64,000 bases of DNA from Eubacterium sp. CAG:180 (GCA_000432435.1 HF993133.1:55428-119427), one strand, 5' to 3'; shown: positions 1,567 through 42,679, counted from the stretch's first letter. The notes: generated from the letters alone by a model not told the origin. Made by a program: numbers and translations.

Positions 1567-2343
1567 TTAAACCAACGAACCTATGCGAAAGAGAGTGCGC
1601 GCGTTTTTATCGGTCTCAAAAAGCAGCTCTTCTACCGCTTCGCCCCTCACCGCAGCTATTTTTTCCGCGGTATAAGGAATCAAGAGCGATGTGCATCGTT
1701 TACCCCTGTAAGGCACGGGCGACATATACGGCGCGTCGGTTTCAAGCAAAAGCCTGTCCTTCGGCACAAAAGCCGCGACCTCTGCCGGCTTTACCGCATT
1801 TTTAAATGTGACCGCTCCGCCGAGGCCTATATACATACCGAGCTTTATAATCTCCTTTGCCGTCTCCACGCTCCCCGAAAAGCAGTGCACGACTCCGCGC
1901 GGACGGTGCTTTTTAAGCAAATTCAGCGTGTCCTCATGCGCTTCGCGGTCGTGAACTATAACGGGCAGCGACAGCTCATTTGCAAGCACAAGCTGTTTTT
2001 CGAATACCTCGAGCTGTTTTTCGCGGCTGTCTCTTTCGTAGTGATAATCGAGCCCGATTTCACCGATTGCCACCACCTTTTTTTGCGCGGCAAGCTTTTT
2101 TATATCGCCGCACCAGTCGGCGGTCAACGAATCGAGATTCAGCGCGTGGAAACCGACGGCGGCATAGATAAACGGATATTTTTCCGCAAGAGCTATCGAC
2201 TTCTCGCTCGTTATTATGTCCGTACCGCAGGTGACGACGCCCGATATACCGTTTTCGGGAAACGAAGACAGCAGCTCATCGCGGTCGCAGTCAAACTGCT
2301 CGTCCTCATAGTGCGCGTGCGTATCAAATATATTTTTATACAT
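1567..2343 (-). CDS. tatD: TatD-family metal-dependent DNase/hydrolase
   Basis: 258 aa. HAHYED.. N-terminal His motif, GEIGLDYHY and LETDAPY TatD signatures. Confidence 0.85.
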   Translation of the reverse strand: MYKNIFDTHAHYEDEQFDCDRDELLSSFPENGISGVVTCGTDIITSEKSIALAEKYPFIYAAVGFHALNLDSLTADWCGDIKKLAAQKKVVAIGEIGLDYHYERDSREKQLEVFEKQLVLANELSLPVIVHDREAHEDTLNLLKKHRPRGVVHCFSGSVETAKEIIKLGMYIGLGGAVTFKNAVKPAEVAAFVPKDRLLLETDAPYMSPVPYRGKRCTSLLIPYTAEKIAAVRGEAVEELLFETDKNARTLFRIGSLV

Positions 2344-4307
2344 TATCTTATTTTTGAGCCGTTCGGCATACTCTTGTCAACGAACACAACTTTAACATCG
2401 TCCTCGGAGCAGTCTGCGGCAAGTATCATACCGTTTGATTCCACTCCGCACAGCACCGCAGGCTTTAAGTTTGCGACAACAACCACCTTTTTGCCTACAA
2501 GGTCCTCGGGCGCATACCATTTTGCGATACCGCTCGCCACGGTTCTGTCCTTGCCCGTGCCGTCATCGAGCGTGAGCTTTAACAGCTTTTTCGCTTTCGG
2601 AACCTTTTCGCACGACTTGACCTCGGCCACGCGAAGCTCAACCTTTGCGAAATCGTCAATGCCTATCTCGGCAACGCCCTCAAGCGAATTTATCATTTTC
2701 TTTTCGGCCTTCTGCTGCTCCTTCTGCTTGGCGGTCAGCTCCTCTATGAGCTTTTCACCGTCTATACGGTTAAACAGCGGCGTGGGAGTTCCCACTTTTT
2801 CACCAGACTTTAACGTGCCGAAGGCTTTGAGGCTCTCGTACGAGCGTTCGTTTGTGCCTATCTGCTCAAATATTTTTTCTGCCGTATCGGGCATAAACGG
2901 AGTTAAGAGCACCGCAAGGAAACGTATACCCTCAAGCAAATTGTAAAGCACCGTGCCGAGTCTGCCCTTTTTGCTCTCGTCCTTTGCGAGTGCCCAGGGC
3001 GTAGTCTCGTCGATATACTTATTAAGGCGGCGTGCAAGAGTGAGAATGTTCTCCGTAGCGTCGCTTATCTTGTATTCGTCAAAGCACCTGTCAACCTCAG
3101 CCACGGTCTTCAAAGCAAGCGATGATATTTCGTCGTCAAGCGGCTCTTTGTCGGCGGGAGCGGCAATTACGCCGTCAAAATATTTATTCTGCATGGCAAC
3201 GGTTCTGTTAACAAGGTTGCCTATGGTGTTGGCAAGGTCGGAATTGTATCTCTCGATAAGTGATTCGTACGTTATGGAGCCGTCCTGCGCGTGTGGCATC
3301 TCGGAGAGAAGATAGTAACGCACCGCGTCAACGCCGAAATCCTTTACAAGGTCGTCGGCATAAATGACGTTTCCGCGGGATTTTGACATTTTATCCTCGC
3401 CGAAAAGCAGCCACGGGTGACCGTATACCTGCTTCGGAAGAGGCTCGCCGAGAGCCATAAGCATAATCGGCCAGTAAATGGTGTGGAATCTCACAATATC
3501 CTTGCCTATGATATGAACATCGGCAGGCCAATACTTTTTATACATATCGCTTGAGCCGTCGGGATCGTAGCCGAGCGCCGTGATATAGTTTGAAAGTGCG
3601 TCTATCCAAACATAGATGACGTGATTCGGGTCAAACGTCACGGGAATGCCCCATTTAAATGACGTTCTCGAAACGCACAAATCCTGAAGTCCGGGTTTAA
3701 TAAAGTTGTTGAGCATCTCTTTTTTGCGAGCTTCGGGATAAATGAAATCGTCGTGGCTCTCGATGTAGTCCTCAAGCTGCTTCTGATATTTTGAAAGGCG
3801 CAGGAAATACGCCTCCTCTTTTGCCTTTTTAACCTCTCTGCCGCAGTCGGGGCACTTGCCGTCTACAAGCTGGCTCTCGGTCCAAAAGCTCTCGCACGGG
3901 GTGCAGTACATTCCCTCGTACTCGCTCTTGTATATATCGCCCTGTTCATAGAGCTTTTTGAAAATCTTTGCAACTATTTTTTCGTGGTACGGGTCGGTGG
4001 TTCTTATGAACTTATCATATGTGGTGTTAAGTACGTCGCAAATGGCGCGTATTTCGCCCGACACCTTATCGACATACTCCTTAGGAGACACACCGGCCTC
4101 TTTTGCATATTCTTCAATCTTCTGCCCGTGCTCGTCCGTTCCCGTAAGGAAAAACACATCGTAGCCCTGAAGTCTTTTGTATCTCGCTATTGCATCGGTC
4201 AAAACTATTTCATAGCTGTTGCCGATATGCGGCTTACGCGAAGTGTACGCAATAGCCGTAGTTATATAGAATTTAGGTTTTTCGCTCAAAGTACAAACCC
4301 CTTTCAA
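2343..4307 (-). CDS. metG: Methionyl-tRNA synthetase with C-terminal tRNA-binding (EMAPII-like) domain
   Basis: 654 aa. HIGNSY (HIGH) and KMSKSRGN (KMSKS) class-I motifs, CPDC zinc knuckle, C-terminal Trbp111-like domain. Confidence 0.95.
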   Translation of the reverse strand: MKGVCTLSEKPKFYITTAIAYTSRKPHIGNSYEIVLTDAIARYKRLQGYDVFFLTGTDEHGQKIEEYAKEAGVSPKEYVDKVSGEIRAICDVLNTTYDKFIRTTDPYHEKIVAKIFKKLYEQGDIYKSEYEGMYCTPCESFWTESQLVDGKCPDCGREVKKAKEEAYFLRLSKYQKQLEDYIESHDDFIYPEARKKEMLNNFIKPGLQDLCVSRTSFKWGIPVTFDPNHVIYVWIDALSNYITALGYDPDGSSDMYKKYWPADVHIIGKDIVRFHTIYWPIMLMALGEPLPKQVYGHPWLLFGEDKMSKSRGNVIYADDLVKDFGVDAVRYYLLSEMPHAQDGSITYESLIERYNSDLANTIGNLVNRTVAMQNKYFDGVIAAPADKEPLDDEISSLALKTVAEVDRCFDEYKISDATENILTLARRLNKYIDETTPWALAKDESKKGRLGTVLYNLLEGIRFLAVLLTPFMPDTAEKIFEQIGTNERSYESLKAFGTLKSGEKVGTPTPLFNRIDGEKLIEELTAKQKEQQKAEKKMINSLEGVAEIGIDDFAKVELRVAEVKSCEKVPKAKKLLKLTLDDGTGKDRTVASGIAKWYAPEDLVGKKVVVVANLKPAVLCGVESNGMILAADCSEDDVKVVFVDKSMPNGSKIR

Positions 4308-5169: not shown

Positions 5170-6190
5170 CGTTTTTGCGCTCCTTTTGTCTCATCATCTC
5201 GCGGCGTTTTTCCGCGCTGATTTTATTTTTCTTTTTATCCTCCTTGCCGTCCTTTAACGCGTCCGATTTTTCGGCATCCTCGCGCACCTCTACGGGTGAA
5301 AACGGCTTGGGATGTTTTTTCAGCGAAACAAGCTTTGCCGTAAGTATCGCAAAGCAAACGACAGCTATAACCATTGACAAAAGCTGTGAAACACGAAGAT
5401 TTGACGAGCCTATATAAAGACTGTCCGTGCGAAGTCCCTCGACCACCGCTCTCTCCGCTCCGTATATAACGCCGTAGCAAAGTATGAGCTGCCCGCTGAA
5501 TTTGTAGAATTTGCGACAAATGATATATATTACCAAAAAGCCCAAAAGGCACCATACGGATTCATACAGGAACGTCGGGTGAACGGGAACATTCGGAGAC
5601 ATCTCTATGCCCTTTGCCCTGAACAGAGCCTGATTTGACACTATGTAATCGACAACCTTGGAGCTTGTCATGCCCCACGGCATTGTCGTATTTGTACCGA
5701 ACGCCTCTTGATTTGCATAATTGCCCCATCTGCCGATGCCCTGGCCTATCAAAAAGCTCATTCCGGCAAGGTCAAGCAGCTTTAAAAAGTCCATTTTATC
5801 AACCTTACAGGTTATGGCTGCGGCGATTATTCCGCCGATAAGTCCGCCGTAGATTGCAAGCCCGCCGTTCCAAATTTTCGGAATTTCCGAAAGATTTTGG
5901 CTGTAATAATCCCACTCAAAGGCTACATAGTAAAGCCTTGCGCCTATAATTCCGCCTATCGTTCCGTACAGCAGCACGTCAAGCATTTTGTTTAAATCCA
6001 TCTTCCACTTGTAAGCCATTCTGCCGCCGAAAAGCACCGCGAGCAAAAAGCCGAACGCTATAATAAGCCCGTAGAATTTAATACTGAACACGGAAGAACC
6101 GATATTGAACTCTACAAAGGTCGAATACACATTGAACGTGTGGTCTATTCCGGTAAATTTTACCGCCGTGCCGTCGGTCAAAAAAGTCAT
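5153..6190 (-). CDS. lgt: Prolipoprotein diacylglyceryl transferase with a lysine/glutamate-rich C-terminal tail
   Basis: 345 aa, multi-TM. Lgt signature G.RLYYV...NGGLAIYGGLIGG; about 55-aa charged C-terminal extension. Confidence 0.88.
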   Translation of the reverse strand: MTFLTDGTAVKFTGIDHTFNVYSTFVEFNIGSSVFSIKFYGLIIAFGFLLAVLFGGRMAYKWKMDLNKMLDVLLYGTIGGIIGARLYYVAFEWDYYSQNLSEIPKIWNGGLAIYGGLIGGIIAAAITCKVDKMDFLKLLDLAGMSFLIGQGIGRWGNYANQEAFGTNTTMPWGMTSSKVVDYIVSNQALFRAKGIEMSPNVPVHPTFLYESVWCLLGFLVIYIICRKFYKFSGQLILCYGVIYGAERAVVEGLRTDSLYIGSSNLRVSQLLSMVIAVVCFAILTAKLVSLKKHPKPFSPVEVREDAEKSDALKDGKEDKKKNKISAEKRREMMRQKERKNDGDDN

Positions 6191-7483: not shown

Positions 7484-8765
7484 CTGCGCCGTCCTCCTTA
7501 TCCGTTCCCGCAAGCATATAAACGGTATCGAGCGAGAGCGCGCAAGCCGTTTTCTTGACGTCGTCCCTTGTGACAGCAAGGAAGTTTTCTATTGCCTCAT
7601 CCGGTGTTACTATATCGCCCGTCAGCTGCGTGCCGTAATATATGTCAAGCGCATCGGGAGTATCGTTGAAGCTGCGGTATGCGTCGCATATGGCTTTTTT
7701 GGAGGCTTCAAAATCCTCGTCCGAAAATTCGCCGTTCTTCATAATGTCAAGCTGCCTGTTTATTTCATCAAGCACCTTTTGCCTGTTTTCTTTTTCGATT
7801 CCGCTCTGTATAACGATTATGCCCTTGCCTCTTATAAGCCTTGCCGAGCAATAATAGCAAAGGCTGAGCTTTTCGCGTACATTCATAAAAAGTCTCGAAT
7901 ACGGGCCGCCGCCGAAAACGTCCGTCATAATGCGGCGCGAATAAAAGTCGTCGTTTTCATCGGTCATACCGCCTCTGAAGCCGAGAACAAGCTTGCTCTG
8001 ATTCATGGTAAGCTCCTCGGTAAGCTCGGTTAAATCCTCCGCCTCTTCGACAAAAACGGTCTCCGGCTCATACGGCGTTCTCTCGCCGACGTCCGAAAAA
8101 GCCTCGCGTAATTTCTTTTTACAATCGTCCTCCGAAATATTGCCTATGGCGTTCAGCTGAATTATGCCGTTTTTCAGCATAAATTTCCACGCGGCAAGCA
8201 GCGATTGCGGAGTGACCTTTTTCACGTTTTCGAGAATTTCGTTTTTGGTAAGTCCGTAGATTTCGTCGGCACACATCGTCTCGAGCATACGAGTCATCGC
8301 ATATGAACGTTTATCGTTGATTTCACTCTCAATGTCCTCTGCGGTAAGACGTATTTCCGTTGACAGCTGCTCCGGTGAAAATCCGTTTTCGTCCGCCGAC
8401 GGTTTTGTAAGAAGCGACAAAAGCAACTCCAGCGACGCGCCCGTGACGCTCTTGCCGTCAAAGGTGAGACTGTCGTCTATGCAGGTTATCGAAAGCTGTA
8501 TACGATAATTCTCGCCGTGTCTTGAAATGCTGCCCGACAAAAGTGCGCCGTAAAGCTCCTCCAAGCGTGAGTTCAGCTTTATAAGCGAATCGTATTTTTT
8601 TGACGAATGCACCAAATACGATGACAGCACGGCATATTCGGCCGCATATTCACCCATCGGCACCAACACGTTAAGCGTAAGGCACGCCGTTTTGAACATA
8701 TCGGTTTTTACGGTCAAAAGCCTTATTTTATCTTCGGTAACAGAAAGCTTTGGAGTAATTTCCAT
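7476..8765 (-). CDS. M16-family peptidase-like protein lacking the HxxEH motif (likely non-catalytic partner subunit)
   Basis: M16 fold features without a zinc motif. Start placed at MEITPKL, preceded by a ggagg RBS. Paired with the adjacent M16 gene, as in YmfF/YmfH-type pairs. Confidence 0.75.
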   Translation of the reverse strand: MEITPKLSVTEDKIRLLTVKTDMFKTACLTLNVLVPMGEYAAEYAVLSSYLVHSSKKYDSLIKLNSRLEELYGALLSGSISRHGENYRIQLSITCIDDSLTFDGKSVTGASLELLLSLLTKPSADENGFSPEQLSTEIRLTAEDIESEINDKRSYAMTRMLETMCADEIYGLTKNEILENVKKVTPQSLLAAWKFMLKNGIIQLNAIGNISEDDCKKKLREAFSDVGERTPYEPETVFVEEAEDLTELTEELTMNQSKLVLGFRGGMTDENDDFYSRRIMTDVFGGGPYSRLFMNVREKLSLCYYCSARLIRGKGIIVIQSGIEKENRQKVLDEINRQLDIMKNGEFSDEDFEASKKAICDAYRSFNDTPDALDIYYGTQLTGDIVTPDEAIENFLAVTRDDVKKTACALSLDTVYMLAGTDKEDGADE

Positions 8766-10698: not shown

Positions 10699-10736
10699 AA
10701 AGACCGGCTGCAGCATTTTGTTACAGCCGGTCTTTC
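10699..10736 (+). terminator. Rho-independent terminator after the radical SAM gene
   Basis: agaccggctg / cagccggtct 10-bp stem followed by a T-run. Confidence 0.7.
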
Positions 10737-10861
10737 AATTAAGCACCTTTCTGTGCAAATCCGTATATCAAAAAAATCGCCCCGCAATCCTGTGAATAAC
10801 GAAAATGCCCCGCAAAAGGCAGGCGAAGAGTTTGGGCCTCTCTGCCTTTTCAATATACAGA

Positions 10862-10954
10862 AAAAAGGTACCGGGAAAAACCCGATACCTTTGTTGTCTG
10901 TGGGGTACAGAAAAGATGTTTTTATGTTTTTTGTGGATAGAGTTGAACTCTCGG
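10862..10954 (-). repeat. Repeat unit 1: terminator hairpin, about 35-nt conserved spacer, then a tRNA 3'-half-like segment (T-arm-like gagagttcaactct plus tccaca)
   Basis: Direct repeat of the 11137..11230 unit, about 80% identical over roughly 58 bp. The minus-strand reading resembles a tRNA T-arm/acceptor 3' end followed by a terminator. Confidence 0.5.
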
Positions 10955-11041
10955 AATTTTTAATGAAATCGTTCGCGTTGCTCACGATGAAATCAAAACC
11001 TACGGTTTTGATGAAATTTTCGGCTACGCAGAAAATGAAAT

Positions 11042-11132
11042 TAAATCCACCCATCGCCGCAGCGATTTCATACGCTGAAAGCGTATTTCATATTGCGAAG
11101 CAATATTTCACCCACCCGCAAGGGTGGATTTA
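11042..11132. other. Long-range inverted repeat (aaatccaccc ... gggtggattt) enclosing an internal hairpin, preceded by three (g/a)atgaaat(c/t) direct repeats spaced about 23 bp apart
   Basis: Read directly from the sequence; no convincing ORF here (the 58-aa frame lacks an RBS). Confidence 0.4.
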
Positions 11133-11136
11133 GTTG

Positions 11137-11230
11137 AAAAGGACAGATTTCTAACGAAATCTGTCCTTTTCTGTCTGTTGGGTACGAAAAAGATGTTTTT
11201 CCGTTTTTACAGGAGAGAGTTGAACTCTCG
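11137..11230 (-). repeat. Repeat unit 2: terminator hairpin aaaaggacagatttc..gaaatctgtcctttt, conserved spacer, then a tRNA 3'-half-like segment containing the palindrome gagagttgaactctc
   Basis: Second copy of the unit at 10862..10954. Lies immediately outside the island gene cluster, so it is a candidate att-site remnant. Confidence 0.5.
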
Positions 11231-11257
11231 AGCGACTTGCATTTACAAATGATATTT

Positions 11258-12645
11258 TCAGTTATGATCTAAAGCACATTTTATACAAAATCCATTACCG
11301 CCATCATTTTCAATATCAAGTGGAGTTCCACACGCTGGGCAGTAACCTAGCTCCCCAGGCGGTTCTGGTCTATCATTAAAATAGGTTTGCTCTAACTTTC
11401 CTTCACTTATAACTGCGGTTTCATAACTATTATCATCTTCGAAATCATAAAAAACTTCTGCTCCTCGCTCTACTTGCACAATAATCTGTCCTTCAAACAC
11501 ATGGTCTCTTCCATCAGAACGAATAATTTCTCTTGTGTCTTCATCTCTTCCCCAGTATTCATAAGATGTTCCTTCTACAGTTACTTTATAGACAAACTCA
11601 TAGATGGCCGTACTATCATCACGAGCAATTCTTTCTGCTCTAACAAACTCACTCTCAGTAATTTCAAACTCGTCAATTCCTTCGGAACCGATATTTGCTG
11701 ATTCTTCATCAATATACTCAGTAGCGTTATATATTAGTTCTTCTTCAACTGATTCAAAAACACTATTTGCAATCTTTACGCAATAATCATTATCTGTCAT
11801 TCGAAGAGCAATTTCAACTGCATCATTTTTTTCAATATCATAAGCCTCAGAAACATCTGAAAAAAAGTCTTTCGATGTCATAGGAACAATCTGTTGACCG
11901 GTTTTTTCAAATTCCTCGATAAGTTTTGTATGGAATTGTCTGTTTCCATCTATAACCTCCCACCAATCCGCCTTGACATCATCAGTAATAAAAATCAAAT
12001 TGGTTGATTCTTTTTTTGCATACCTTAAAGTTTCCTGCCAAAGTATCAAATCGCTATACATTCGAACGCCATCTTTATTCTTAGCATCTTTGAAGCCAGG
12101 CGGAATTTCGTTTTTATATCTTTTTTGACCTTCTTCACACCAACGATATATATCCTCTTGTGATGGTGCAATCATAACTTGTCCGTTAGTATCTATTGCT
12201 TCAATGAACTTTTCAAGAAAATCATTTCCAGCCCACGAATGTTGAATAAGTCCAAGAGCTGCATGGTCTTCGAAATAATTATCAAGTACAGATTTAACTG
12301 CATCTATTTTTTCTGATAGGTTAATCTTCAAGTCGTCAACATCTTGATACTGTAATCTTTCAAGGCTATGGCACGAATTAATTATCTTCGATTTTGCGGT
12401 TTCTATTTGCTTGGCCGTTTCTTTGCTCGCCTCTTCAATGCGTTTTTCCATTTTGGAAAACTCTCCGCGTTTGTGTTTTTCATACTCCAATCTCACGGTT
12501 GCAGGTAGAATTATATAATTTTTACAGCTTTTAAGCATTCAAGTGCAAACTCAGAGAATTCAGGAGAATACCTATAAATATTTAAAAGTACATTGGTATC
12601 TAAAATCACACGATATCCATTTTCAATCAACTCTTTTATAGTCAT
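11258..12645 (-). pseudogene. PIN-like (PIN_8/DUF4935-type) nuclease-domain protein with C-terminal zinc ribbon, disrupted by a 1-nt frameshift in an A/T homopolymer near 12519-12523
   Basis: A 43-aa frame MTIKELIENGYRVILDTNVLL...ECLKAVKII* has a good RBS (aaggaaag) and a PIN N-terminal motif. It continues in the -1 frame as the 426-aa ORF (NYIILPATVRLEYEKH...IFITDDVKADWW...CPACG..CIKC). One extra A would join the two frames. Confidence 0.6.
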
Positions 12646-12762
12646 TGTTTTCTTTCCTTTATATGTTCATTTACTTTTTTGTAAAATGCATAAAACAACT
12701 GAATTTTATTTTTTATATAAAATATATGTTGATATAATATCACAAAATTCTATTTTTTTCAA

Positions 12763-14430
12763 TTAGTTCAGCATCTGCTCAACTTTCAACCCGCCTACAA
12801 ATACTACCTTTATTTTTTCTTTGGATTCCACCACTACGCATTCGAGAATTTGGCGAATGATTTGATCGTCATAGGTTAGCGGATGATTTTTGAGTCCGTC
12901 AAGTATTGTGTATATTTCATCAAGACGGGATTTTGCGTTTTCTCTTTTCTGCTGTACCTCCGCATACTGAGCAAGCTGCTGTTCCAATCGGCTTTTTTCA
13001 TTCATCAGTTCCGTTGCCTTGGTTTCGTCAAAGCTTTCTACCGTATCGGCGGATATGGCTTTGAGCATTTTATGAAATTCCGCGTCTATTTCTGCTATGC
13101 GAATCTGTATATCAAGGCTTTTATCCTCTGTATCGTTTTGGTCTAGTCCCATACCGATGTGAAGTTTCAGCGTTTTAAGAATATCGGCATTGAGTTTTGC
13201 TGTATCTATAACGGCTGACATAATCGCATTTTGCAGTATGCTTTCTTCAATACTCGGCGAATGGTGGCAGTACTTTTTTCCGTAATCAAGACGGTTGATG
13301 CATCGCCATACGATTTTCTTTTTGCCTTTAGCAGTCCATGTACATCTGCGATACGGTGTTCCGCATTCTCCGCAGACAAGCAGTTCGGTTAAAGCGTATT
13401 TACCTGAATATTTGCCTTGCTCGGTTTTAGTACCAACTTGTTTGACTTTACGCTTGCCAGAACGCCGTGCCATTTCTTCCTGAACTCTGCCGAAAGTAGC
13501 GGAGTCTATAATCGCAGGATGATTGTTTTCTACATAATATTTCGGTCGCTCACCGTTATTGATTTTTACTTTTTTAGTAAGACAGTCCGATATATATGTT
13601 TTGTTAAGCACGGCATCGCCTTTATATTTTTCATTGGTGAGGATAGATTGTATTGTACCTCGAAGCCATGAGCCTTTGTCGGACGGTGTCGGCACACCGT
13701 CCGTATTTAAATCCTCTGCGATTTTTGCAAGGCTGTCGCCTGCGAGAAATCTTTCATATATTCGTTTAACGGTTTCAGCCTGTTCGGGATCAATTTCAGG
13801 TTTGCCGTCTGCACCTTTTCTATAGCCTAAAAACCGTTTGTATTGGAACGGTACATTGCCTTCTTTGGCGCTTTGTGCCTTACCCCATTTAACATTGGCG
13901 CTGATATTTTCCGATTCGCTCTGTGCGATACTGCCGTAGATGGTGATATAAAACTCTGCACCGGGATCGGTACTGTGGATGCCCTGTTCCTCGAAAAATA
14001 CATCTACGCCTAATTCTTTTAGCAATCTTGTGCTTTCAAGGCAGTCGACAGTATTTCGGGCAAAGCGTGATATGGATTTCGTAATAATCATATCAATCTT
14101 GCCACGTTTACACATTTTAATCATGCGTTTAAACTCATCACGTTTCTTAAGACTGGTGCCGGAGATTCCTTTATCAGCGAATATTTCTACCAAAGACCAT
14201 TTTGGCTCACTGTTAATTTTTTCGATGTAGTATTTTGTCTGCACTTCGTAACTATTCAGCTGTTCTTCCTCTTTGGTAGATACACGGCAGTAAGCAGCCA
14301 CCCGAAGCTGTCTGTATGCAGATTTGATTTCATCCTGAATATTAACCTGTGCAGGAATCACATGTACTGATTTCTGTGGTATTACTGCTGTTTGTGTCAT
14401 CGCTCTGCTCCTTTCCGATCTGCTGATCAT
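12763..14430 (-). mobile_element. Large serine recombinase (resolvase catalytic domain, recombinase domain, zinc ribbon, coiled-coil)
   Basis: 555 aa. Catalytic motif YCRVSTKEEEQ; Zn ribbon CGECG..C..C. Start overlaps the upstream recombinase gene by 89 bp. Confidence 0.9.
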
Positions 14431-15259
14431 TTAATAAAATTATGCTTACCGCACCGCCGGTGCTGAATTTAATTGCTTTAACGGTACGGTTGAATAAATC
14501 CATAGAAAATGCTGAAAGCGGACTCGCATTTGCAAAGTCCGCTTTTAATATTTTTGATGTATATTTTTGCGAATCTATATCCTTATATTTTAAAGATACA
14601 CATTCGAGTATCTTTTTCCGCAGGATATTTTTATCAAAGCTGTGACTGTCAAGCACCCTGCTGATTTCATTTTCAAATCTGCGAACATCCAAACTTGGGT
14701 CTTTATCAATATCTGTAATCATTTCAATTGCATCAGAATTGCTGATAACTGTATTTAAACATTGGGTAATACCATATATCAAATCGTTGTCTGATATGCT
14801 GATAATATTTTTACAGTTATCATTTTGACACAGCCACCAATCCTGACATTTTCGATTGCTGTCATGCCGCCTGCACATCTTACTGCAGCATTTTGGACAT
14901 AGTATCGGCACACCGAGATTAAATATATCTGATTTTCTGTCGATGTGCTTCTGCGTATTCTTTTCCGATTTTATCAGCATTAAGGTTTTATGCATATCTT
15001 CGTCTATAATCGGAGGATAGCTACTCGTACCGAGATAACGCTCATCCTCAATGATTCTTTTAATTCTTGATTTATTCCAACCACATACGCCGAGCATATA
15101 TTCAATCTGTTCATTGTTCAGATGTTCTGCAATTTTCAGCAGTGATAATCCGTTGAGGTATTCCGTAAAAATACGTTTGACGGTTTCAGTTTCTTTTTCT
15201 TGGATTGCTATACTGCCATTCTTGTATTGATAGCCGTATGGAATATTACGAATTTTCAC
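14342..15259 (-). mobile_element. Recombinase-domain/zinc-ribbon protein lacking the N-terminal serine catalytic domain (degenerate middle member of a three-recombinase cluster)
   Basis: 305 aa. Begins directly with the recombinase-domain motif (YGYQYKNGSIAIQEKETETVKRIF..), zinc ribbon CPKCCSKMC. No RVS catalytic serine motif. Overlaps both neighbours, indicating translational coupling. Confidence 0.75.
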
Positions 15260-16820
15260 GCCTGCGACACCGTCCTTTCAGTGGAATTTCTTCTGTAAGT
15301 TCAATATCACCGATGAGTTTAAATGTAAGATCTGCGTTGCTGTTCACAGTAATGCCGACTACAATTTTTTCGAACAGCTCTTCATCAAAATTGTTGCTCG
15401 GATCATAAGCTTCGAGGATCTCATTAAGACTGTTCAGCGTATCAAACCACGCATCATTTTCATCATCCGATAACTTTTTCCGTCTTTTTGTTCTGAGCGT
15501 GCTGATTTTATTATTTATCTCAGATGACTGTGCAGAGAATTCCGCAGAATTTATCACTCCGTTGGTATGAAGCCTTGCGATTACAAGATTTTGTGCGGCA
15601 AGGTCGGCAATTTTTTTGTCAATTCTGCGTATTACATCTATATTGTCTGATGTTCTGTTTTGCATTGCTTCAACTTGCCTGATTAAATCACCGAGTAAGG
15701 TTTTTCGATTATCCGTTAACTTTTGAACCAGCATTGTAAAGGTTTCATATACGGCAGTTTCTTTCAGCCTGAGTGGTCTGCAGTCCGTCATGCTTGCAGC
15801 TTTATTGCTGCATAACCAATATGCTGTACCTTTTACAATCTGCCGTCTGAAGGTCATTCCGCAGTCGGGACATCGCATAACTTTTGACAGCAAGTATTTG
15901 CCTTTGCTGTTACTGTAAACATTTTTTCTTGAATTTTGCAATGTCTGAACCGCTTGGTATATTTCGCGGCTTACAATCGGCGGATTGCTGTTTTCCACAT
16001 AGTATTTCGGCAGTTCGCCATGATTCATCTTTCTTTTGAACGGTAAAGTTTCAGTTGTATAGCTCTTTTGGAGCAGAGCATCACCCATATACCGTTCGTT
16101 ATTTAAGATATAGTGTACTGTGGACTCATACCATTTGTCTTTACCATATCTTCTGCTCACGCCTTCGTCATTGAGAATATTCGCAATACTTTGCTTTCCG
16201 ACTCCACTGAGATATAAATCGAATATGCGTCGGATGATGGCAGCTTGCGGTTCGTTAATCATCAATTGTCCGTCTTTTAAAATATATCCGTATGCAGGAT
16301 TGCAACAATTGAATTCACCTGATTCCATCCGCTTTTTATAGCTCCAACGCATATTCCCCGATATGGACTCGCTCTCTTGCTGAGCCGCCATACCGGGGAA
16401 TGTAACGATCATTTCCATATTCAGTTTATCAGTATCAATGCCTTGTTCCTCAAAATACACGCTGATACCGAGTTCCTTCAGCAGTCTGATACATACCAAT
16501 AGCTCCTGCGTATTTCTTGCAAATCGGGATACTGATTTTACAACGATACGATCGATTTTGCCTTTTTTGCAATCACGAATTAACCGATTCAGTTCATCGC
16601 GCTTTTCCATTGAAGTGCCTGTCAGACCTTCATCTGCATATATATCCACCAATTTGTATTCGGGATGCTTTTGCTCATAATCCTTGTAGTATCTGATTTG
16701 TGCGGCGAAGGAGTGCAACTGATCCGCAGAATCGCTTGACACACGGCAATAGGCTGCCAAACGAATGATTTTATTTTCTTCCTTACTCTTAGCCGTTATT
16801 TCTGTTACATTCATAAGCAT
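15246..16820 (-). mobile_element. Large serine recombinase
   Basis: 524 aa. YCRVSSDSADQ catalytic motif, recombinase domain, Zn ribbon CPDCG..C. Confidence 0.9.
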
Positions 16821-17073
16821 TTTCCTTTCCGCAGATTCTATCTGCTGTTGTCACCTTATCTTCGGTGCAACACCAACAATACCACAAGAGTTCACATACT
16901 TCCAGCGAAATTGAGCAGATTTAAAAATTTAGACACAATAAATTTTTGTGCTGTAGTATTCCGAACTTATACGCACGATTCTGTTATATTCATCTTCTGT
17001 AATCAGATTCATTTTCAGCAAATGCCTTAACATATTTACACTGTAATAAAATGCCGAATTATTTATATCTTCT

Positions 17074-17442
17074 TTATTTTTCATTTTGTAACCTCTCTAA
17101 ATAGTCAAGACCTAAACTGATTAAGATTGCTTTATCAATCCGTTTCATCTGCCTATCATCCATTTCACCGACAAATCTGCCGAGACGGGATTTGTCGATT
17201 GTTCTTATCTGTTCAAGTAGAACCATGGATTCTTTTTTCATGCAGTCTGATTTAAAAATAACATGTGTCGGAAGGTACGGCTTATCCAGTTCCCCTGTGA
17301 TCGGTGCTACAATTGTAGTTGTGCTATGAAGATTTCCTTTATCGTTCTGCAGGATAACCACAGGGCGGATACCGCCTTGCTCAGAACCCATAACCGGGCA
17401 TAAATTGGCGTAATATATTTCTCCTCGTTTTATTTGTTCCAT
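17074..17442 (-). CDS. mazF: MazF/PemK-family mRNA interferase toxin (type II TA toxin) with no recognisable antitoxin gene upstream
   Basis: 122 aa. GEIYYANL..GSEQGG.RPVVILQND PemK/MazF signature. ggagg RBS present. Upstream neighbour is an ORF-poor GC-rich stretch rather than a MazE/PemI gene. Confidence 0.85.
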   Translation of the reverse strand: MEQIKRGEIYYANLCPVMGSEQGGIRPVVILQNDKGNLHSTTTIVAPITGELDKPYLPTHVIFKSDCMKKESMVLLEQIRTIDKSRLGRFVGEMDDRQMKRIDKAILISLGLDYLERLQNEK

Positions 17443-17919
17443 TTTCCTTGCCTCCGTTAATAAGTAAAAGGCGATCGCTTATCAAAATTGGTAAACGACC
17501 GCCTGTAATTTTGTATCAATCGTTTTGTTATCCGATATTTGAACCACGCCACCCCTCGAATACACGGGAACGCACTTTCCGACCATGCATTTGGCCTCAT
17601 TGGAATTTCACCACTCCGAGGATCTCTCCGAGCCGCTCTCCTTTGTTGCGACGGTCTTATCACGCTCGACTTTAGGACTGAACGGAAGTATCATTATTGC
17701 CTCTGCCTGTCATCGCCTTCGTGCAGATTGCCTGTATCGTCTGAGTCCTGAAGGCACTGAAAATCAATGCGTTCGCTCATGTGGCTCGCCGGTTTTAGCC
17801 GACAGCAGAGGGAATGTAAAAAATGCGCTGTGATATTTACTTTTCAAGGAACAACAGAGGCAAAAGAAATGCCCCTCACTTTCCATGCCGAAAAGTAAGG
17901 GGGTTGATAACCAAAAATT

Positions 17920-18429
17920 TTAAATTTTCATCATTTTTTTAAGTTTTTCAAGAATTTTGACTTTTCTCTTATGTATTGCAACCTGCGAAATTCCGTATTT
18001 TTCTGCAAGCGTGCGTTCGGATAATTCTTCATAAAATATTTCACGAATAAGTTTTTGCTCATCTTCTGCAAGTAGAGGCAAAGCAGATTTTAGCTTGTCC
18101 GTCATTATTTTTCGAATAACTTGTTCGTCAAGAGGTTCGCTCTCATCCGCAAGAATATCCTCACCATTGAAATCATCGGTTGTGAGCATATCATAAGAGA
18201 AATCGTTGTTTTCTGCTGAACGTTCATCTATGTATTTTTGACGGCGTTTGGATTTATAGAAATTTCTATAAGTTTCTTCTGTTACTTCCATAAGCATTCC
18301 GTGCAGAGGGATAAATAACTTGTCCGCATAAGAAATATCGTTTTCTTTAAACGAGCAAAAATCCTCATAACTTAATTCTTTGTAATTACCGTTTTCTAAA
18401 ATAAATACTTTTTTCGGTGTATTTTTCAC
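17920..18429 (-). CDS. Sigma-70 region-4 (HTH) domain protein, ECF/Tn916-Orf7-like regulator typical of Firmicutes mobile elements
   Basis: 169 aa. C-terminal LSERTLAEKYGISQVAIHKRKVKILEKL helix-turn-helix. A 9-bp inverted repeat caatctaaa/tttagattg lies just upstream of the start. Confidence 0.7.
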   Translation of the reverse strand: MKNTPKKVFILENGNYKELSYEDFCSFKENDISYADKLFIPLHGMLMEVTEETYRNFYKSKRRQKYIDERSAENNDFSYDMLTTDDFNGEDILADESEPLDEQVIRKIMTDKLKSALPLLAEDEQKLIREIFYEELSERTLAEKYGISQVAIHKRKVKILEKLKKMMKI

Positions 18430-18667
18430 CGTTATTTCCTCCTATCAATCTAAATTTTTAGGTTTAGATTGGTTTGGAGGACTGCGGCAACCTACGCTAT
18501 AATAATTGATACAGCTATAGGCACAATAAAAAAGGCCAAATTTGCCCCTCGTTATGCAAAGGGTAAATTTGGCTTTATAGTTGGTATTTAAATTTTGAAT
18601 TTTTACATTTTTAATAGTCTATATTTACATAATAATATATTATCTCAATGAATAAAGTTTTTTCTTT

Positions 18668-19471
18668 TTATACTGTATTTTCATTTTTTAATTTTCTGAA
18701 TTTACCGGGAGAAACGCCTACATTTTTCGTAAAAACATAAATAAAATTAGCCTCGCTATTGAAACCTGTTTCATAGGCCACGGCAGTTATGGTTAATTCC
18801 GTACTTCTGAGCAGGTATTTTGCTTTTTTTATCCGCATTGCCATAACATAAGCGTACGGTGAATCGCCCGTATATTTTTGGAAAACCCTATTAAAATGAG
18901 AAACGCTCATTGGCATTTTGTCGGCAAGCTTTCTAACGCTAAGATTCTCATTCAGATTATCGGCAATATAATTTATAATCTTTTGAACACTGTCATTATA
19001 GTTGTTTTCACGGTCGTTTTTACTGTTGCTGAAACAGAATAATTTTTGCAATAATTTTTCTATATCTGTGCTTATACTTAGTTTAGAAAAAGGCTTTGTG
19101 CTATTGCAAATACTGTCATATATATGCAAAAACAGCTTTTTTTCGGAAGCGGTATTCTTGCACTTTGTAATACCTTTGTTTTTTTGAATCAGTTCAAAAT
19201 AATCTACTCCGCCGATTTGCATCCAAATAAGTTCCCCGCGGCTGTTCATGTCCGATTGAAGAGCTGACGGATTGTCACAATACAGCATATCACCTACGTG
19301 TGCGGAAATTTGCATACCGTTTTTTACAAATGTAAACGCACCATCCACAATATACATAATTAAAAAACTGTTGCTATTCGTATGAAACAGCGGTTGATTT
19401 TCTGCACAGCAAAAGCGCCCCGCACCGACAGGATAATACCTGTCGGTGCTTTTTATTGATTCCGTTTTCAT
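18668..19471 (-). CDS. AraC-family transcriptional regulator (cupin sensor plus AraC HTH), probable xylose regulator
   Basis: 267 aa. C-terminal AraC HTH signature (LSVRKLADK...YLLRSTELTITAVAYETGF). Adjacent to xylB-xylA. Confidence 0.85.
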   Translation of the reverse strand: MKTESIKSTDRYYPVGAGRFCCAENQPLFHTNSNSFLIMYIVDGAFTFVKNGMQISAHVGDMLYCDNPSALQSDMNSRGELIWMQIGGVDYFELIQKNKGITKCKNTASEKKLFLHIYDSICNSTKPFSKLSISTDIEKLLQKLFCFSNSKNDRENNYNDSVQKIINYIADNLNENLSVRKLADKMPMSVSHFNRVFQKYTGDSPYAYVMAMRIKKAKYLLRSTELTITAVAYETGFNSEANFIYVFTKNVGVSPGKFRKLKNENTV

Positions 19472-33393: not shown

Positions 33394-34710
33394 ATGACAG
33401 AAGGAAATTACATACATCATAAAGAAAAAGGAAAGCATATTGCAGGGCAGATGACTCTGACAGAATTAGCGTCACAGATGCGCAATTCATCAAAAGCAAT
33501 AGAGCGACTGAATATTAAACAGTACAACTGGTGGAACGAAGGTTTACACGGTGTTGCAAGAGCCGGTGTTGCAACCGTATTTCCCCAAGCTATATGCATG
33601 GCTTCAACCTTTGATGAAAAGGCTGTAAAAAAATGTGCAGATATTATTGCAACAGAGGTAAGGGCAAAATTCAATGAGAGTCAAAAGAACGAGGATTACA
33701 GTATATACAAAGGACTTACGCTTTGGTCTCCTAATATAAATATTTTTAGGGATCCACGCTGGGGCAGAGGTCACGAAACCTATGGCGAAGACCCGTATTT
33801 AACCTCCATTCTCGGCTGTGCCTTTATTGAGGGAATACAGGGTGATGACGAAAAATATATGAAAGCCTCTGCATGTGCAAAGCACTTTTGCGTGCACAGC
33901 GGTCCCGAGGGATTAAGGCACACTTTTAATGCCGAAGTGTCCAAAAAGGATTTTTATGAAACTTATATTCCTGCGTTTGAAGCCGCCATTAAAAAAGCAA
34001 AGGTCAGCGGTGTTATGGGAGCATATAACATGGTGAACGGTGAAAGCTGTTGTGCCTCTAACAAGCTTATTGATAAGCTATTAAGAAAAGAATGGGGCTT
34101 TGACGGTTACTATGTTTCGGATTGCTCTGCAATATTAGATGTTATATATAAACACAAGAAAACATTAAATCCAGCAAAAGGCGCCGCGATGGCAGTAAAT
34201 GCAGGTTGCGACCTTGAATGCGGAGTAGTATATTCATTATTGCCTGTATCCGTTAAGTTGGGATATACAAATAAAGAAGCCTTAAAAAAGTCTGTATCGA
34301 GGCTGATGGCAATTCGCAGTGCTCTCGGAATGTTTGATAAGGATTGCCCTTATAACGAAATAAGTATTAGTGATAATGCAACACCCGAGCACGAAAGCGA
34401 AGCAGTTAGAATGGCAGAAAAAGGAATTGTACTTTTAGAAAATGACGGTATACTTCCCCTTAAAGAAAACGCACAGAAAATCTTGATCACAGGATTTAAT
34501 GCTGATAACAAGTTGGCTTACCTCGGAAATTATTTTGGAGATCCGTCGCATTTTGTTATGGTTACAGAAGCTATTTCACAATATAACATTGATACTGAAT
34601 TTATAAGAGGCATACATCTTTATAATCAAAGCACAAAACATGACAAGGAAACAGCATTAAAATCTGCAGCAGAATCGGATATTATCATTATGTGCACAGG
34701 GCAGACATAA
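33394..34710 (+). pseudogene. GH3 glycoside hydrolase (beta-glucosidase/beta-hexosaminidase family), N-terminal catalytic domain only, truncated at a rearrangement junction
   Basis: 438 aa. Contains the GH3 motifs RDPRWGRGHETYGEDPYL and KHF..HSGPE, but ends abruptly where GH3 enzymes normally continue for about 300 more residues. Confidence 0.7.
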
Positions 34711-35302
34711 AAAGCAGAGCGGCGGACACGGTCAGTTCGGCGATGTATTTATTGAATTTGAACCTTGCCAAAGCGAAGAACTTGAGTTTGCAGAAAGAGT
34801 TGTCGGCGGCTCCGTTCCCAAAAACTTCTTCCCTGCCGTTGAAAAAGGCTTGAGAGAGTCTATACAAAAAGGTGTAGTTGCAGGCTATCCTATGGTTGGA
34901 ATAAAAGCAACTCTTTACGACGGCTCATATCACCCTGTTGACTCATCGGAAATGAGTTTTAAAATTGCGGCAAGTCTTGCTTATAAAAACGGTATTCCTC
35001 AGGCAAATCCTGTTTTACTTGAGCCTGTCGGCACACTTAAAGCACTTTGCAATGACGAAGCAATGGGCGATATTATCGGCGACATCAACAAAAGACGAGG
35101 CAGAGTTCTCGGTATGACTCCTCAAGGCAACGGAATGCAGGAAATTTTGGCTGAAGTTCCTATCGGAGAAATGGCGTCGTTCCCGACTTCCATGCGTCAG
35201 ATTACTCAAGGCAGAGGCAGTTTTGAAATTGAATTTGCACGCTACGAAAAAGTGCCTGAACACATTGCTCAAAAAATTATTGAAGACTCAAAAGAAGAAT
35301 AA
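34691..35302 (+). pseudogene. 3' fragment of an EF-G-like (fusA-type) translation factor gene (domains IV-V), with no start codon
   Basis: Frame open from 34661. AQGRHKKQSGGHGQFGDV..VVAGYPMVGIKATLYDGSYHPVDSSEMSFKIAASLA..VLLEPV..AEVP..QGRGSFEIEF matches the EF-G C-terminal third. Begins out of frame exactly at the GH3 truncation point. Confidence 0.7.
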
Positions 35303-35360
35303 AATCGTCAAAAAAAATATTTTCTTGCTTGATTTTTTCATTGTAAGCCTTCTTTTAAAA

Positions 35361-35406
35361 AACAACAGACCTTTGTTTAAACAAAGGTCTGTTGTTTTAT
35401 TTTTTG
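35361..35406 (+). terminator. Strong rho-independent terminator (aacaacagacctttg..caaaggtctgttgtt plus T-run)
   Basis: 15-bp perfect stem followed by ttatttttt. Confidence 0.8.
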
Positions 35407-42384: not shown

Positions 42385-42603
42385 TTCAATTGCCTGATTT
42401 TAAATTTATTAAGTCGCACAATCATTATTCATCCGCAGATATTTTTATTAAAAAAATATGAATTTAACTTTGAGTTTTGATAAAACAACAATATCAAAAT
42501 CTTTTTCTTTGCTTGGCGTTCGCTCCCATCAGTGCGTTCGAATCCACTTTTTAAAATTGCACATATAAAAGAAAAAAGACACTGCAAAAAGCAATGTCTT
42601 TTT

Positions 42604-42679
42604 TGGTGGACCTGAAGAGATTCGAACTCTCGACTTCTACAATGCGAATGTAGCACTCTCCCAGCTGAGCTACAGGCCC
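42604..42679 (-). tRNA. tRNA-Ala (anticodon CGC) with encoded CCA, followed by a terminator hairpin
   Basis: The minus strand reads GGGCCTGTAGCTCAGCTGGGAGAGTGCTACATTCGCATTGTAGAAGTCGAGAGTTCGAATCTCTTCAGGTCCACCA. This folds as a cloverleaf with the G3:U70 alanine identity pair and anticodon loop TTCGCAT. Terminator at 42575..42603. Confidence 0.85.

Follow-up and report, generated by a model that had tools for sequence, protein, structure and literature searches.

The locus described here raises the question of what a set of three adjacent serine recombinase-family genes moves and where the moving unit ends. These genes lie in a 64-kb stretch of DNA from Eubacterium sp. CAG:180 (GCA_000432435.1, HF993133.1:55428-119427), termed the window, between a radical-SAM gene and a group of xylose genes; coordinates without another label refer to this window, and L-numbers (L003, L013, etc.) are labels of related contigs or loci. 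A previous reading of the sequence alone (the sequence-only reading) had placed the recombinases, together with a sigma-like regulator, a PemK/MazF toxin gene and a PIN nuclease gene, in a compact integrative island of about 7.5 kb. The analyses presented here indicate that an integrative element of a generally known type is indeed present, but that the 7.5-kb block probably serves as the module for recombination and control at the far end of a larger island of 31.4 kb (11174-42605), integrated at the CCA end of a tRNA-Ala gene.

Extent and target site of the island

Flanks were compared by looking up exact copies of the window proteins in public assemblies. These copies come from a species that is very common in the human gut and carries the label Candidatus Fimenecus sp. 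or Acutalibacteraceae. A sister contig, L013, contained the empty site: its radical-SAM flank matches the window to position 10896 and then resumes at 42598, continuing as the 3′ end of tRNA-Ala(cgc). The variable DNA absent from L013 spans 10897 to 42605 (31.7 kb) and includes the xylose genes, the large island proper accounting for 11174 to 42605 (31.4 kb). GC content is 0.38 from 11175 to 18667 and 0.39 from 18668 to 42603; the two flanks have higher values, 0.47 and 0.485. The sequence-only reading was right to propose an integrative element driven by serine recombinases, but this empty-site check of sister contigs showed its boundaries to be wrong.

The target is the 3′ terminus of the tRNA-Ala(cgc) gene (42604-42679, minus strand, detected with ARAGORN), with the crossover point at the terminal CA of the encoded CCA. 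At 10864-10896 (minus strand) lies the original terminator of this tRNA, now the chromosomal half of the left junction; a terminator scan placed its hairpin at 10864-10892. This hairpin directly follows the tRNA-Ala CCA in L013, whereas in the window it is 31.7 kb away from the tRNA. Reading of the junctions showed that the right end of the island (42575-42605, minus strand) provides a terminator hairpin of its own for the tRNA, followed by TG. Copies of this TG dinucleotide are located at 10895-10896, the end of the stranded tRNA-Ala terminator segment; at 11172-11173, the right end of a 277-bp mini-element described below; and at 42604-42605, the right end of the island.

The empty tRNA-Ala site in L013 reads ...cccgatacctttgtTG|GTGGACCTGAAGAGATTCGAAC, the flank joining the GTGGACC... 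of tRNA-Ala. The left junction in L010, where the radical-SAM flank joins the island with no mini-element, reads ...cctttgtTG|TCTGTTGGGTACGAAAAAGATG, and the right junction in the window reads ...gcaatgtcttttttG|GTGGACC, with the island end, gtcttttttG|G, abutting tRNA-Ala. In every left junction, TG is followed by TCTGT, while the only sequence common to all junctions is TG, corresponding on the tRNA strand to the CA of the encoded CCA. These junctions exhibit a 2-bp crossover without long direct repeats, the pattern characteristic of large serine recombinases. As the TG-only junctions are the product expected of a serine recombinase with a 2-bp crossover, they suggest catalysis by an enzyme of this type. 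An island excised by the same exchange would have the circle junction ...GCAATGTCTTTTTTG|TCTGTTGGGTACG, i.e., gtcttttttG|TCTGTTGGG, and would leave the restored, island-free site CCTTTGTTG|GTGGACC; the predicted circle junction for the mini-element is ...TCTGTCCTTTTCTG|TCTGTGGGGTAC.

The left end of the large island (11174-11239, no strand assigned) consists of a conserved motif, TCTGTTGGGTAC..AGATGTTTTTCCGTTTT..TTGAACTCTCG, which contains a T-arm-like hairpin and is presumably a recombinase-binding arm. The same motif terminates related elements in L025, L029, L038 to L041, L047 and L053, and the island's copy was found joined to three different flanks, each time preceded by TG. The T-arm-like hairpin (GAGAG TTCAACT CTCTC on the tRNA strand) is present at 11214-11230 and 10937-10953; this feature of element left ends, seen also in L029 and L038 to L041, resembles the T-arm of the tRNA beside the target.

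Junction polymorphisms and tandem insertions

Both ends of the island were also observed at other tRNA genes. In L003 and L006, and in three similar contigs, the left end follows TG on the flank of tRNA-Arg(ccg), on the terminator side; L003 and L006 share 11.4 kb with the window at 100% identity, xylA included. The araC and xylose genes remain joined to the recombinase module in L003, L006 and L010, at 99.97 to 100% identity. An empty tRNA-Arg(ccg) site, '...tttaagtTG|GCGCGCC', was present in L060, whose DnaK is named Candidatus Fimenecus sp., and the tRNA-Arg(ccg) flank comes from the same species. A metagenome scan for island right ends not adjoining tRNA-Ala recovered two contigs only, L058 and L059, and in both this end borders tRNA-Tyr(gta), again at TG|G.

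L025 contains a second, related triple-recombinase element, which separates the island from the tRNA and is inserted exactly at window position 42605. Its external recombinase (LSR_E), middle protein (M) and internal recombinase (LSR_I) are 70%, 42% and 60% identical, respectively, to those of the window. The junction of island and tRNA thus remains usable as a target, which accounts for the tandem stacking of elements.

Two other observations concern the same neighbourhood. In L026, a separate 6.9-kb tyrosine-integrase mobilisable element (L026 11461-18361, corresponding to window 42454-42465), with genes for TnpV, a sigma-70 region 2 protein, a MobA/MobL relaxase, an HTH_17 protein and an integrase, lies inside the island's right-end region, so that the surroundings of this tRNA-Ala form a hotspot in general. 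In the stretch from the radical-SAM gene to the tRNA-Ala terminator, a unit of about 100 nt (aatccctccgagttgccttaacg.ggcccacctccctttacaagggaggc), possibly a structured RNA or a small repeat, occurs twice in L013 (11617-11829) and once in L010 (about 11440-11560) and is absent from the window between 10805 and 10817.

A gene-less mini-element carrying Gut-1 RNA

Between the stranded terminator and the large island lies a gene-less miniature element of 277 bp (10897-11173, no strand assigned). Its left end resembles that of the large island, with a 66-nt direct repeat 83% identical to 11165-11230; two convergent Gut-1-type arrays follow, and the right end (11136-11173) is a bidirectional terminator hairpin, found by the terminator scan, with a 16-bp stem and then CTG. 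The minus-strand array (11060-11136) is a Gut-1 RNA of three hairpins spaced by GUGAAAU, which matches Rfam RF01706 over its full length (model positions 1 to 77) at 92.3 bits, relative to a gathering threshold of 50. It is on the strand of the tRNA and begins right after the terminator hairpin, leaving no room for a promoter of its own on that strand. The plus-strand array (10961-11046), with hairpins spaced by AUGAAAU, is a weak Gut-1-like match (RF01706, 33 bits, below the gathering threshold of 50).

The mini-element varies independently of the island, being present beside it in the window and absent between flank and island in L010. It also occurs alone in L061 and L062 (276 of 277 positions identical), between the terminator of an ABC-transporter gene and tRNA-Arg(ccg), where it is bounded by the same TG dinucleotides, and the tRNA-Arg site of L060 has no mini-element. 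As this unit has no open reading frame, its movement would require recombinases in trans, and the common end motif makes the neighbouring triple-recombinase family the obvious candidate mover. Five short-read contigs (L018, L019, L020, L063 and L064) end inside or at the 277-bp element, as expected if it is multi-copy in those genomes.

Gut-1 was listed as 'human gut only', with no context, in its discovery paper (PMC2864571). A loose pattern scan of viral contigs for this RNA returned mostly chance matches, 4 of 120 being confirmed by Rfam. All four confirmed copies have the order tRNA 3′ end or fragment, CCA, terminator hairpin, Gut-1; one adjoins a single large serine recombinase gene and another a tyrosine integrase gene. 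The copies examined were those at 11060-11136 in the window and at L061 12112-12188, L100 9790-9866, L145 361-437, L111 425-499 and L109 6873-6948, and every Gut-1 copy examined directly follows a tRNA 3′ end (or fragment), CCA and a terminator hairpin.

The recombinase triplet and its non-catalytic middle protein

The three recombinase-family genes are adjacent and co-oriented (12763-16820, minus strand), about 1.6 kb from the left junction, and constitute a triplet module; such cassettes, ascribed in the sequence-only reading to clostridial integrative mobilizable elements, are a recognised hallmark of Firmicute integrative elements (PMC4701971). LSR_I (15246-16820, minus strand, 524 aa) and LSR_E (12763-14400, minus strand, 545 aa) are intact open reading frames, each with the complete large serine recombinase domain set of Resolvase (PF00239), Recombinase (PF07508) and Zn_ribbon_recom (PF13408). 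Their translations contain the motifs AAYCRVSS and AAYCRVST, respectively, in agreement with the two full recombinases (YCRVSS and YCRVST) that had been recognised earlier. The longest reading frame of LSR_E is 12763-14430, and the start at 14400 is backed by homologues. The overlaps that had been noted among all three genes amount to 14 nt for LSR_I and M and to 59 nt for M and LSR_E, or 89 nt if the longest reading frame is used. LSR_E is 41% identical to LSR_I and 70 to 94% identical to its relatives.

The middle gene (14342-15259, minus strand) encodes M, a protein of 305 aa with a recombinase domain and a zinc ribbon, and the earlier view that it lacks the catalytic domain was borne out. 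Pfam detected only Recombinase (PF07508; E value, 7.7e-12) and no catalytic Resolvase domain in M, and the reading frame starts inside the LSR_I stop region with no room for such a domain upstream. The M family comprises more than 500 sequence clusters, generally of about 285 to 305 aa and with PF07508 alone; the 120 relatives listed are 182 to 317 aa long (about 285 to 317 aa when full length), and none has a Resolvase domain, the matches being to PF07508 only or, for three truncated entries, to no Pfam family. M aligns with residues 174 to 339 of LSR_I with a 29-residue gap. The structure model of M (mean predicted local distance difference test score, 62.6) is confident for the recombinase and zinc-ribbon parts only, not for the C-terminal third, and matches the DNA-binding C-terminal parts of the serine integrases 4kis, 9y66 and 9dxh (Foldseek probability, 1.0). 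This modelling, together with the family comparison, indicates that M is a conserved non-catalytic DNA-binding paralogue of a large serine recombinase, which may serve in site selection or as a directionality factor. Searches of phage and plasmid collections returned only distant relatives of M, at 35% identity or less. The 90%-identity cluster holding M also lists 758-aa Faecalibacterium 'hydratase' proteins, an apparent artefact of database clustering.

A conserved control module with a structured leader RNA

Upstream of LSR_I lies a group of small control genes, all on the minus strand. The first (17920-18429) encodes a small sigma-70-like protein with a Pfam Sigma70_r4 domain and an extracytoplasmic function-type superfamily match, so that the sigma-70 region 4 regulator of the sequence-only reading is upheld; an inverted repeat (18440-18470; aatctaaa-tttttagg-tttagatt) just upstream of its start is a possible operator. 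A leader of about 480 nt follows (17443-17919), containing a terminator after the sigma gene, a pemK RNA motif (17597-17697; Rfam RF02913, 73.5 bits against a gathering threshold of 34.8) that precedes PemK by about 150 nt and, just ahead of the ribosome-binding site of PemK, a last hairpin with TTTTAC. Next are the genes for a PemK/MazF-family endoribonuclease (17074-17442; Pfam PemK_toxin; E value, 3.7e-30) and for a 51-aa SHOCT_2 protein (16929-17084; PF20612, 28.4 bits) that overlaps the PemK stop codon by 11 nt. The SHOCT_2 gene, the pemK RNA and the Gut-1 RNA had all been missed in the sequence-only reading.

That reading had described the toxin as lacking an antitoxin gene, and this was supported by six-frame translation and alignment of nine related loci, which revealed no conserved MazE/PemI-like protein antitoxin in the 480-nt spacer upstream of PemK. 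Upstream peptides common to the nine spacers were considered as antitoxins and rejected, as they are the conserved RNA read in frame. The adjacent MazE/PemI gene of a type II toxin-antitoxin system is thus missing, and the downstream neighbour of PemK is SHOCT_2.

Conservation of this module was examined in a scan for the M family using one genome per species, which yielded 20 loci in other species; the representative of the window species itself was not returned. The order sigma, PemK, SHOCT_2, LSR_I, M, LSR_E is kept in about 15 of these 20 loci, all from genomes of Clostridia. Both SHOCT_2 and the position of PemK are conserved in most related modules, the PemK gene being missing in L029 and L044. 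Every related module scanned with sequence for the interval from the sigma gene to PemK contains the pemK RNA in that interval, and the whole 480-nt spacer is conserved across the aligned related loci, ending in the hairpin and TTTTAC. In the PemK-less L029 and L044, the pemK RNA is retained upstream of SHOCT_2 and the recombinases (5654-5772 and 7601-7729, respectively). From its position, the spacer would be an attenuator-type leader of the SHOCT_2/recombinase operon rather than a PemK-specific element. The conserved gene order indicates that PemK is a member of the module and not cargo. A function of the pemK RNA is not discussed in the literature searched. The single-stranded motif UGAAAU, noticed in the Gut-1 linkers and in the last hairpin loop of the pemK RNA, was considered as a PemK target or RNA antitoxin; this speculation was weakened by the finding that most related leaders read UGAGAU.

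The genes upstream of the sigma gene differ among related loci and include those for a type IV secretion system coupling protein (L040), TrbL (L047), holin, M23 peptidase and tail proteins (L029) and unrelated cargo elsewhere. The module is therefore common to conjugative elements, a prophage and the transfer-less island.

These data are consistent with the following mechanism. The island would insert right after the CCA of tRNA-Ala(cgc), with strand exchange within the TG that corresponds to the CA of CCA; the tRNA would be left whole and would receive a replacement terminator from the tRNA-proximal end of the island. LSR_I and LSR_E may act together with M, which has only the DNA-binding parts, in an arrangement that would resemble the heteromeric CcrA/CcrB pair. 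The recombinases are probably expressed as one operon behind the sigma-like regulator and the structured, terminator-containing pemK RNA leader. PemK, perhaps with SHOCT_2, is probably a stabilising toxin. What was observed comprises the genes, the boundaries, the sequences of the junctions, the presence or absence of units and the conservation of the module; we infer the division of catalytic labour, the part played by M and any present-day activity, and assign functions to PemK, SHOCT_2, the leader and Gut-1 by position only. As the tRNA-side junction would still resemble an empty target, further insertions could build up arrays, of which the 277-bp element would be one unit, gene-less and presumably moved by recombinases acting in trans.

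Sugar-gene cargo and possible exchange between tRNA loci

The cargo of the island (18668-42574, no strand assigned), as defined by Pfam-scanned open reading frames, is absent as a whole block from L013. It consists, in order, of araC, xylB, xylA, a 748-aa beta-helix protein, two metallophosphoesterases and an N-glycan cluster of GH18 and GH38, followed by LacI, a truncated GH3, a C-terminal fragment of EF-G, a major facilitator superfamily (MFS) transporter, a split transketolase, MFS_2 and LysR. A perfect palindrome of 40 bp (35359-35398), detected as a BLAST reverse self-match, is situated downstream of the EF-G fragment.

Several findings weigh against a single 31.4-kb unit that is mobile today. 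The scanned reading frames between 18.7 and 42.6 kb include no conjugation, transfer or phage genes; a type IV secretion system, coupling protein and relaxase, as would be carried by an integrative and conjugative element (ICE), were not found among them, while the relatives L040 and L047 do carry conjugation genes. An internal scar is present at about 34693-34850, where a 3′-truncated GH3 (33394-34710) meets a 5′-truncated EF-G2-like gene (34850-35302); with this deletion scar and no transfer genes, the island may be in decay. An excised circle, recognisable by its attP junction, was not seen. About 22 of 23 long contigs with the radical-SAM gene contain the island, which is therefore nearly fixed, a distribution that also fits an immobile remnant. 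L003 and L006 show the left junction only, so that transposition of the whole island and site-specific chromosomal rearrangement are indistinguishable in these contigs. The right 7.9 kb of the island in L059 follows an intact EF-G2-like gene (1821-3500), itself preceded by a flavo-diiron-type protein, and adjoins tRNA-Tyr. The island is therefore mosaic, part of it may stem from exchange between tRNA loci, and the right part could be chromosomal DNA exchanged in this way, outside a single travelling unit. The island's own right end has no Gut-1, and this RNA is therefore not needed in cis for the island.

The most serious alternative accepts the recombinase module and mini-element as real but regards the 24-kb sugar block as chromosomal DNA shuffled between the Ala, Arg and Tyr tRNA loci by recombinase-mediated exchange between element junctions; the system would then mainly drive rearrangement, and the module would be a stranded remnant. 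The metabolic cargo with its scar, the continuity of the L059 segment with an intact EF-G2-like gene and a flavoprotein, the swapped left flank of L003 and L006 and the near-fixation of the island all agree with this explanation. We nevertheless consider it rather unlikely, as L013 exhibits a base-precise join of the chromosomal halves at TG, the outcome expected if a single unit integrates or excises, as GC content is uniformly low across the segment and distinct from that of both flanks, and as related modules end bona fide conjugative elements and a prophage. Integration of the 31.4-kb island as one element, with its recombination module at the far end, is therefore preferred.

The PIN gene and the accessory slot

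The space between LSR_E and the end of the island holds a PIN_8 and zinc-ribbon gene (11258-12645, minus strand) that is frameshifted into open reading frames 12511-12645 and 11258-12538. The larger frame has a PIN_8 match (Pfam E value, 1.4e-35) and a C-terminal CPAC...CIKC zinc ribbon. The true start is at 12645, and a frameshift at an A5 run near 12520 has left the first 44 codons, with the VILDTN active-site strand, in another frame. The repaired protein (462 aa) aligns end to end with intact homologues of 461 to 468 aa, while a homologue search found no close intact copy of the window gene. The PIN-like nuclease and zinc ribbon identified previously are hence real, but the gene itself is broken.

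The contents of this slot vary among relatives. It is empty in L025, L047 and L053. The L029 prophage has PIN_8 and DUF8310 there, L038 and L039 have two unknown proteins and a TIR protein resembling SpbK (PADLOC, 231 bits), and in L040 and L041 the slot is taken by a set of preQ0/queuosine genes. Elsewhere, homologues of PIN_8 adjoin Shedu and restriction-modification genes (L032 to L034) or lie in Tn7-like cargo with an SLFN-TIR protein (L035 to L037). A search of PADLOC-DB 2.0 with seven island proteins gave no match at an E value below 0.001 and two chance-level matches (E values of about 0.007 to 0.009, 14 bits), in keeping with the previous statement that no obvious named defence system is present. 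The proposed defence or addiction payload of PIN plus orphan MazF is retained in part: these neighbourhoods make the PIN family plausibly defence-type cargo, but PemK belongs to the conserved module.

The company kept by PIN_8 homologues and the TIR protein in the equivalent slot of L038 and L039 could also be taken to mean that the functional core of the locus is an anti-phage or addiction system of PIN_8/zinc-ribbon protein and PemK, with the recombinases as a mere vehicle. This is improbable: none of the seven proteins is matched by PADLOC, the catalytic N terminus of PIN is out of frame, PIN is absent from most related modules whereas PemK stays with the recombinases, PemK is itself dispensable in the two modules that keep the leader RNA, and PIN and PemK largely never co-occur outside this lineage.

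It is scarcely credible that positions 10700-18670 form a self-contained AT-rich island of some 7.5 kb, inserted between radical-SAM gene and araC, flanked by attL and attR sites of its own and loaded with PIN and an orphan MazF. The block does have low GC, a cluster of all the mobile-element-type genes and a real left junction near 10.9 to 11.2 kb. However, junctions near 18.6 kb are seen in no contig, the left-end motif lacks a counterpart there, araC and the xylose genes stay on the module when the other flank changes, low GC runs on to 42603, the empty site lacks 31.7 kb and PemK is no payload.

Wider meaning

The island is unusual in its targeting of tRNA CCA ends by a triple module, in the non-catalytic middle subunit, in the Gut-1 mini-element with the same ends and in the pemK RNA as putative leader of the recombinase operon. 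To our knowledge, serine integrases have been described as inserting into protein-coding genes. A broader proposal, which we put forward tentatively and with less confidence than the reading of the island itself, is that triple modules of two catalytic large serine recombinases and a non-catalytic paralogue form a class targeting the CCA-end CA of several tRNA genes. Gut-1 would then be a signature cargo of gene-less mini-elements and of the tRNA-proximal ends of larger elements, moved in trans, and Gut-1 and pemK RNA would be mobile-element RNAs tied to tRNA-end integration and operon control rather than host regulatory RNAs.

In practical terms, a recombinase cassette can mislead the calling of islands, as the 7.5 kb would be the engine of a 31-kb sugar-utilisation island, here in a very common uncultured human-gut species. 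Targeting of CCA ends explains the tandem build-up of elements at tRNA loci, and a family that acts, with a defined 2-bp crossover, at three or more different tRNA genes would be valuable as a natural multi-site integrase system. Gut-1, known since 2010 from gut metagenomes only and without context or function, gains a testable setting as a 277-bp hitchhiker after tRNA CCA ends, and pemK RNA can be reinterpreted as a recombinase-operon leader.

Comparison with known systems

Units that are gene-poor, carry att-type ends like those of a neighbour and are stacked in tandem are represented by the cis-mobilizable elements (CIMEs) beside ICESt1 and ICESt3 of Streptococcus thermophilus. The mini-element is similarly gene-poor, bounded by neighbour-type ends and stacked at the integration site. 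It differs from CIMEs in being only 277 bp long, in carrying a structured RNA motif, in occurring alone at another tRNA and in belonging to a serine- rather than a tyrosine-recombinase system. The toxin of the module is a clear PemK/MazF-fold protein on a mobile element, as in type II MazEF/PemIK systems. Unlike these systems, it has no MazE/PemI gene, is accompanied instead by an upstream leader RNA and a SHOCT_2 gene overlapping the toxin stop and is dispensable for the module.

The staphylococcal cassette chromosome SCCmec provides a precedent for two different large serine recombinases side by side (CcrA and CcrB) that are needed together, as may be the case here, for integration at the 3′ end of a conserved housekeeping gene and for tandem accretion of cassettes, including recombinase-less ones. 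The best NCBIfam matches were CcrB for LSR_E and LSR_I (126 to 132 bits) and CcrA for M (44 bits), but these scores are sub-threshold, far under the equivalog cut-offs of 700 to 900 bits, so that the proteins do not belong to the Ccr families. A third, non-catalytic protein and a tRNA target, rather than rlmH/orfX, also set the island apart from SCCmec. Closer to the control genes, 023_CTn2 of Clostridioides difficile and other CTn-type elements have the order serine recombinase, hypothetical protein, PemK/MazF, sigma-70 (PMC6814731, Table 1). The end module described here has the same gene order by the recombinase, a likeness taken from a gene listing; a single recombinase is listed there, and no leader RNA or att-site analysis is reported.

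The nearest counterparts are the ICEs of streptococci, in which triplets of serine integrases (external, middle and internal) are located at element ends with repeats of 2 to 8 bp (Ambroset et al. 2016, PMC4701971). The island shares with them three adjacent, co-oriented serine recombinase-family genes at one extremity, very short direct repeats, the occasional presence of accessory genes between triplet and target and the shuffling of modules between element families. It has no conjugation module, and M lacks a Resolvase domain, whereas all three streptococcal proteins are reported to be catalytic (PMC4701971). Finally, streptococcal triplets insert in and disrupt mutT, traG and hsdM, while the target here is the CCA end of a tRNA gene, which is left intact.

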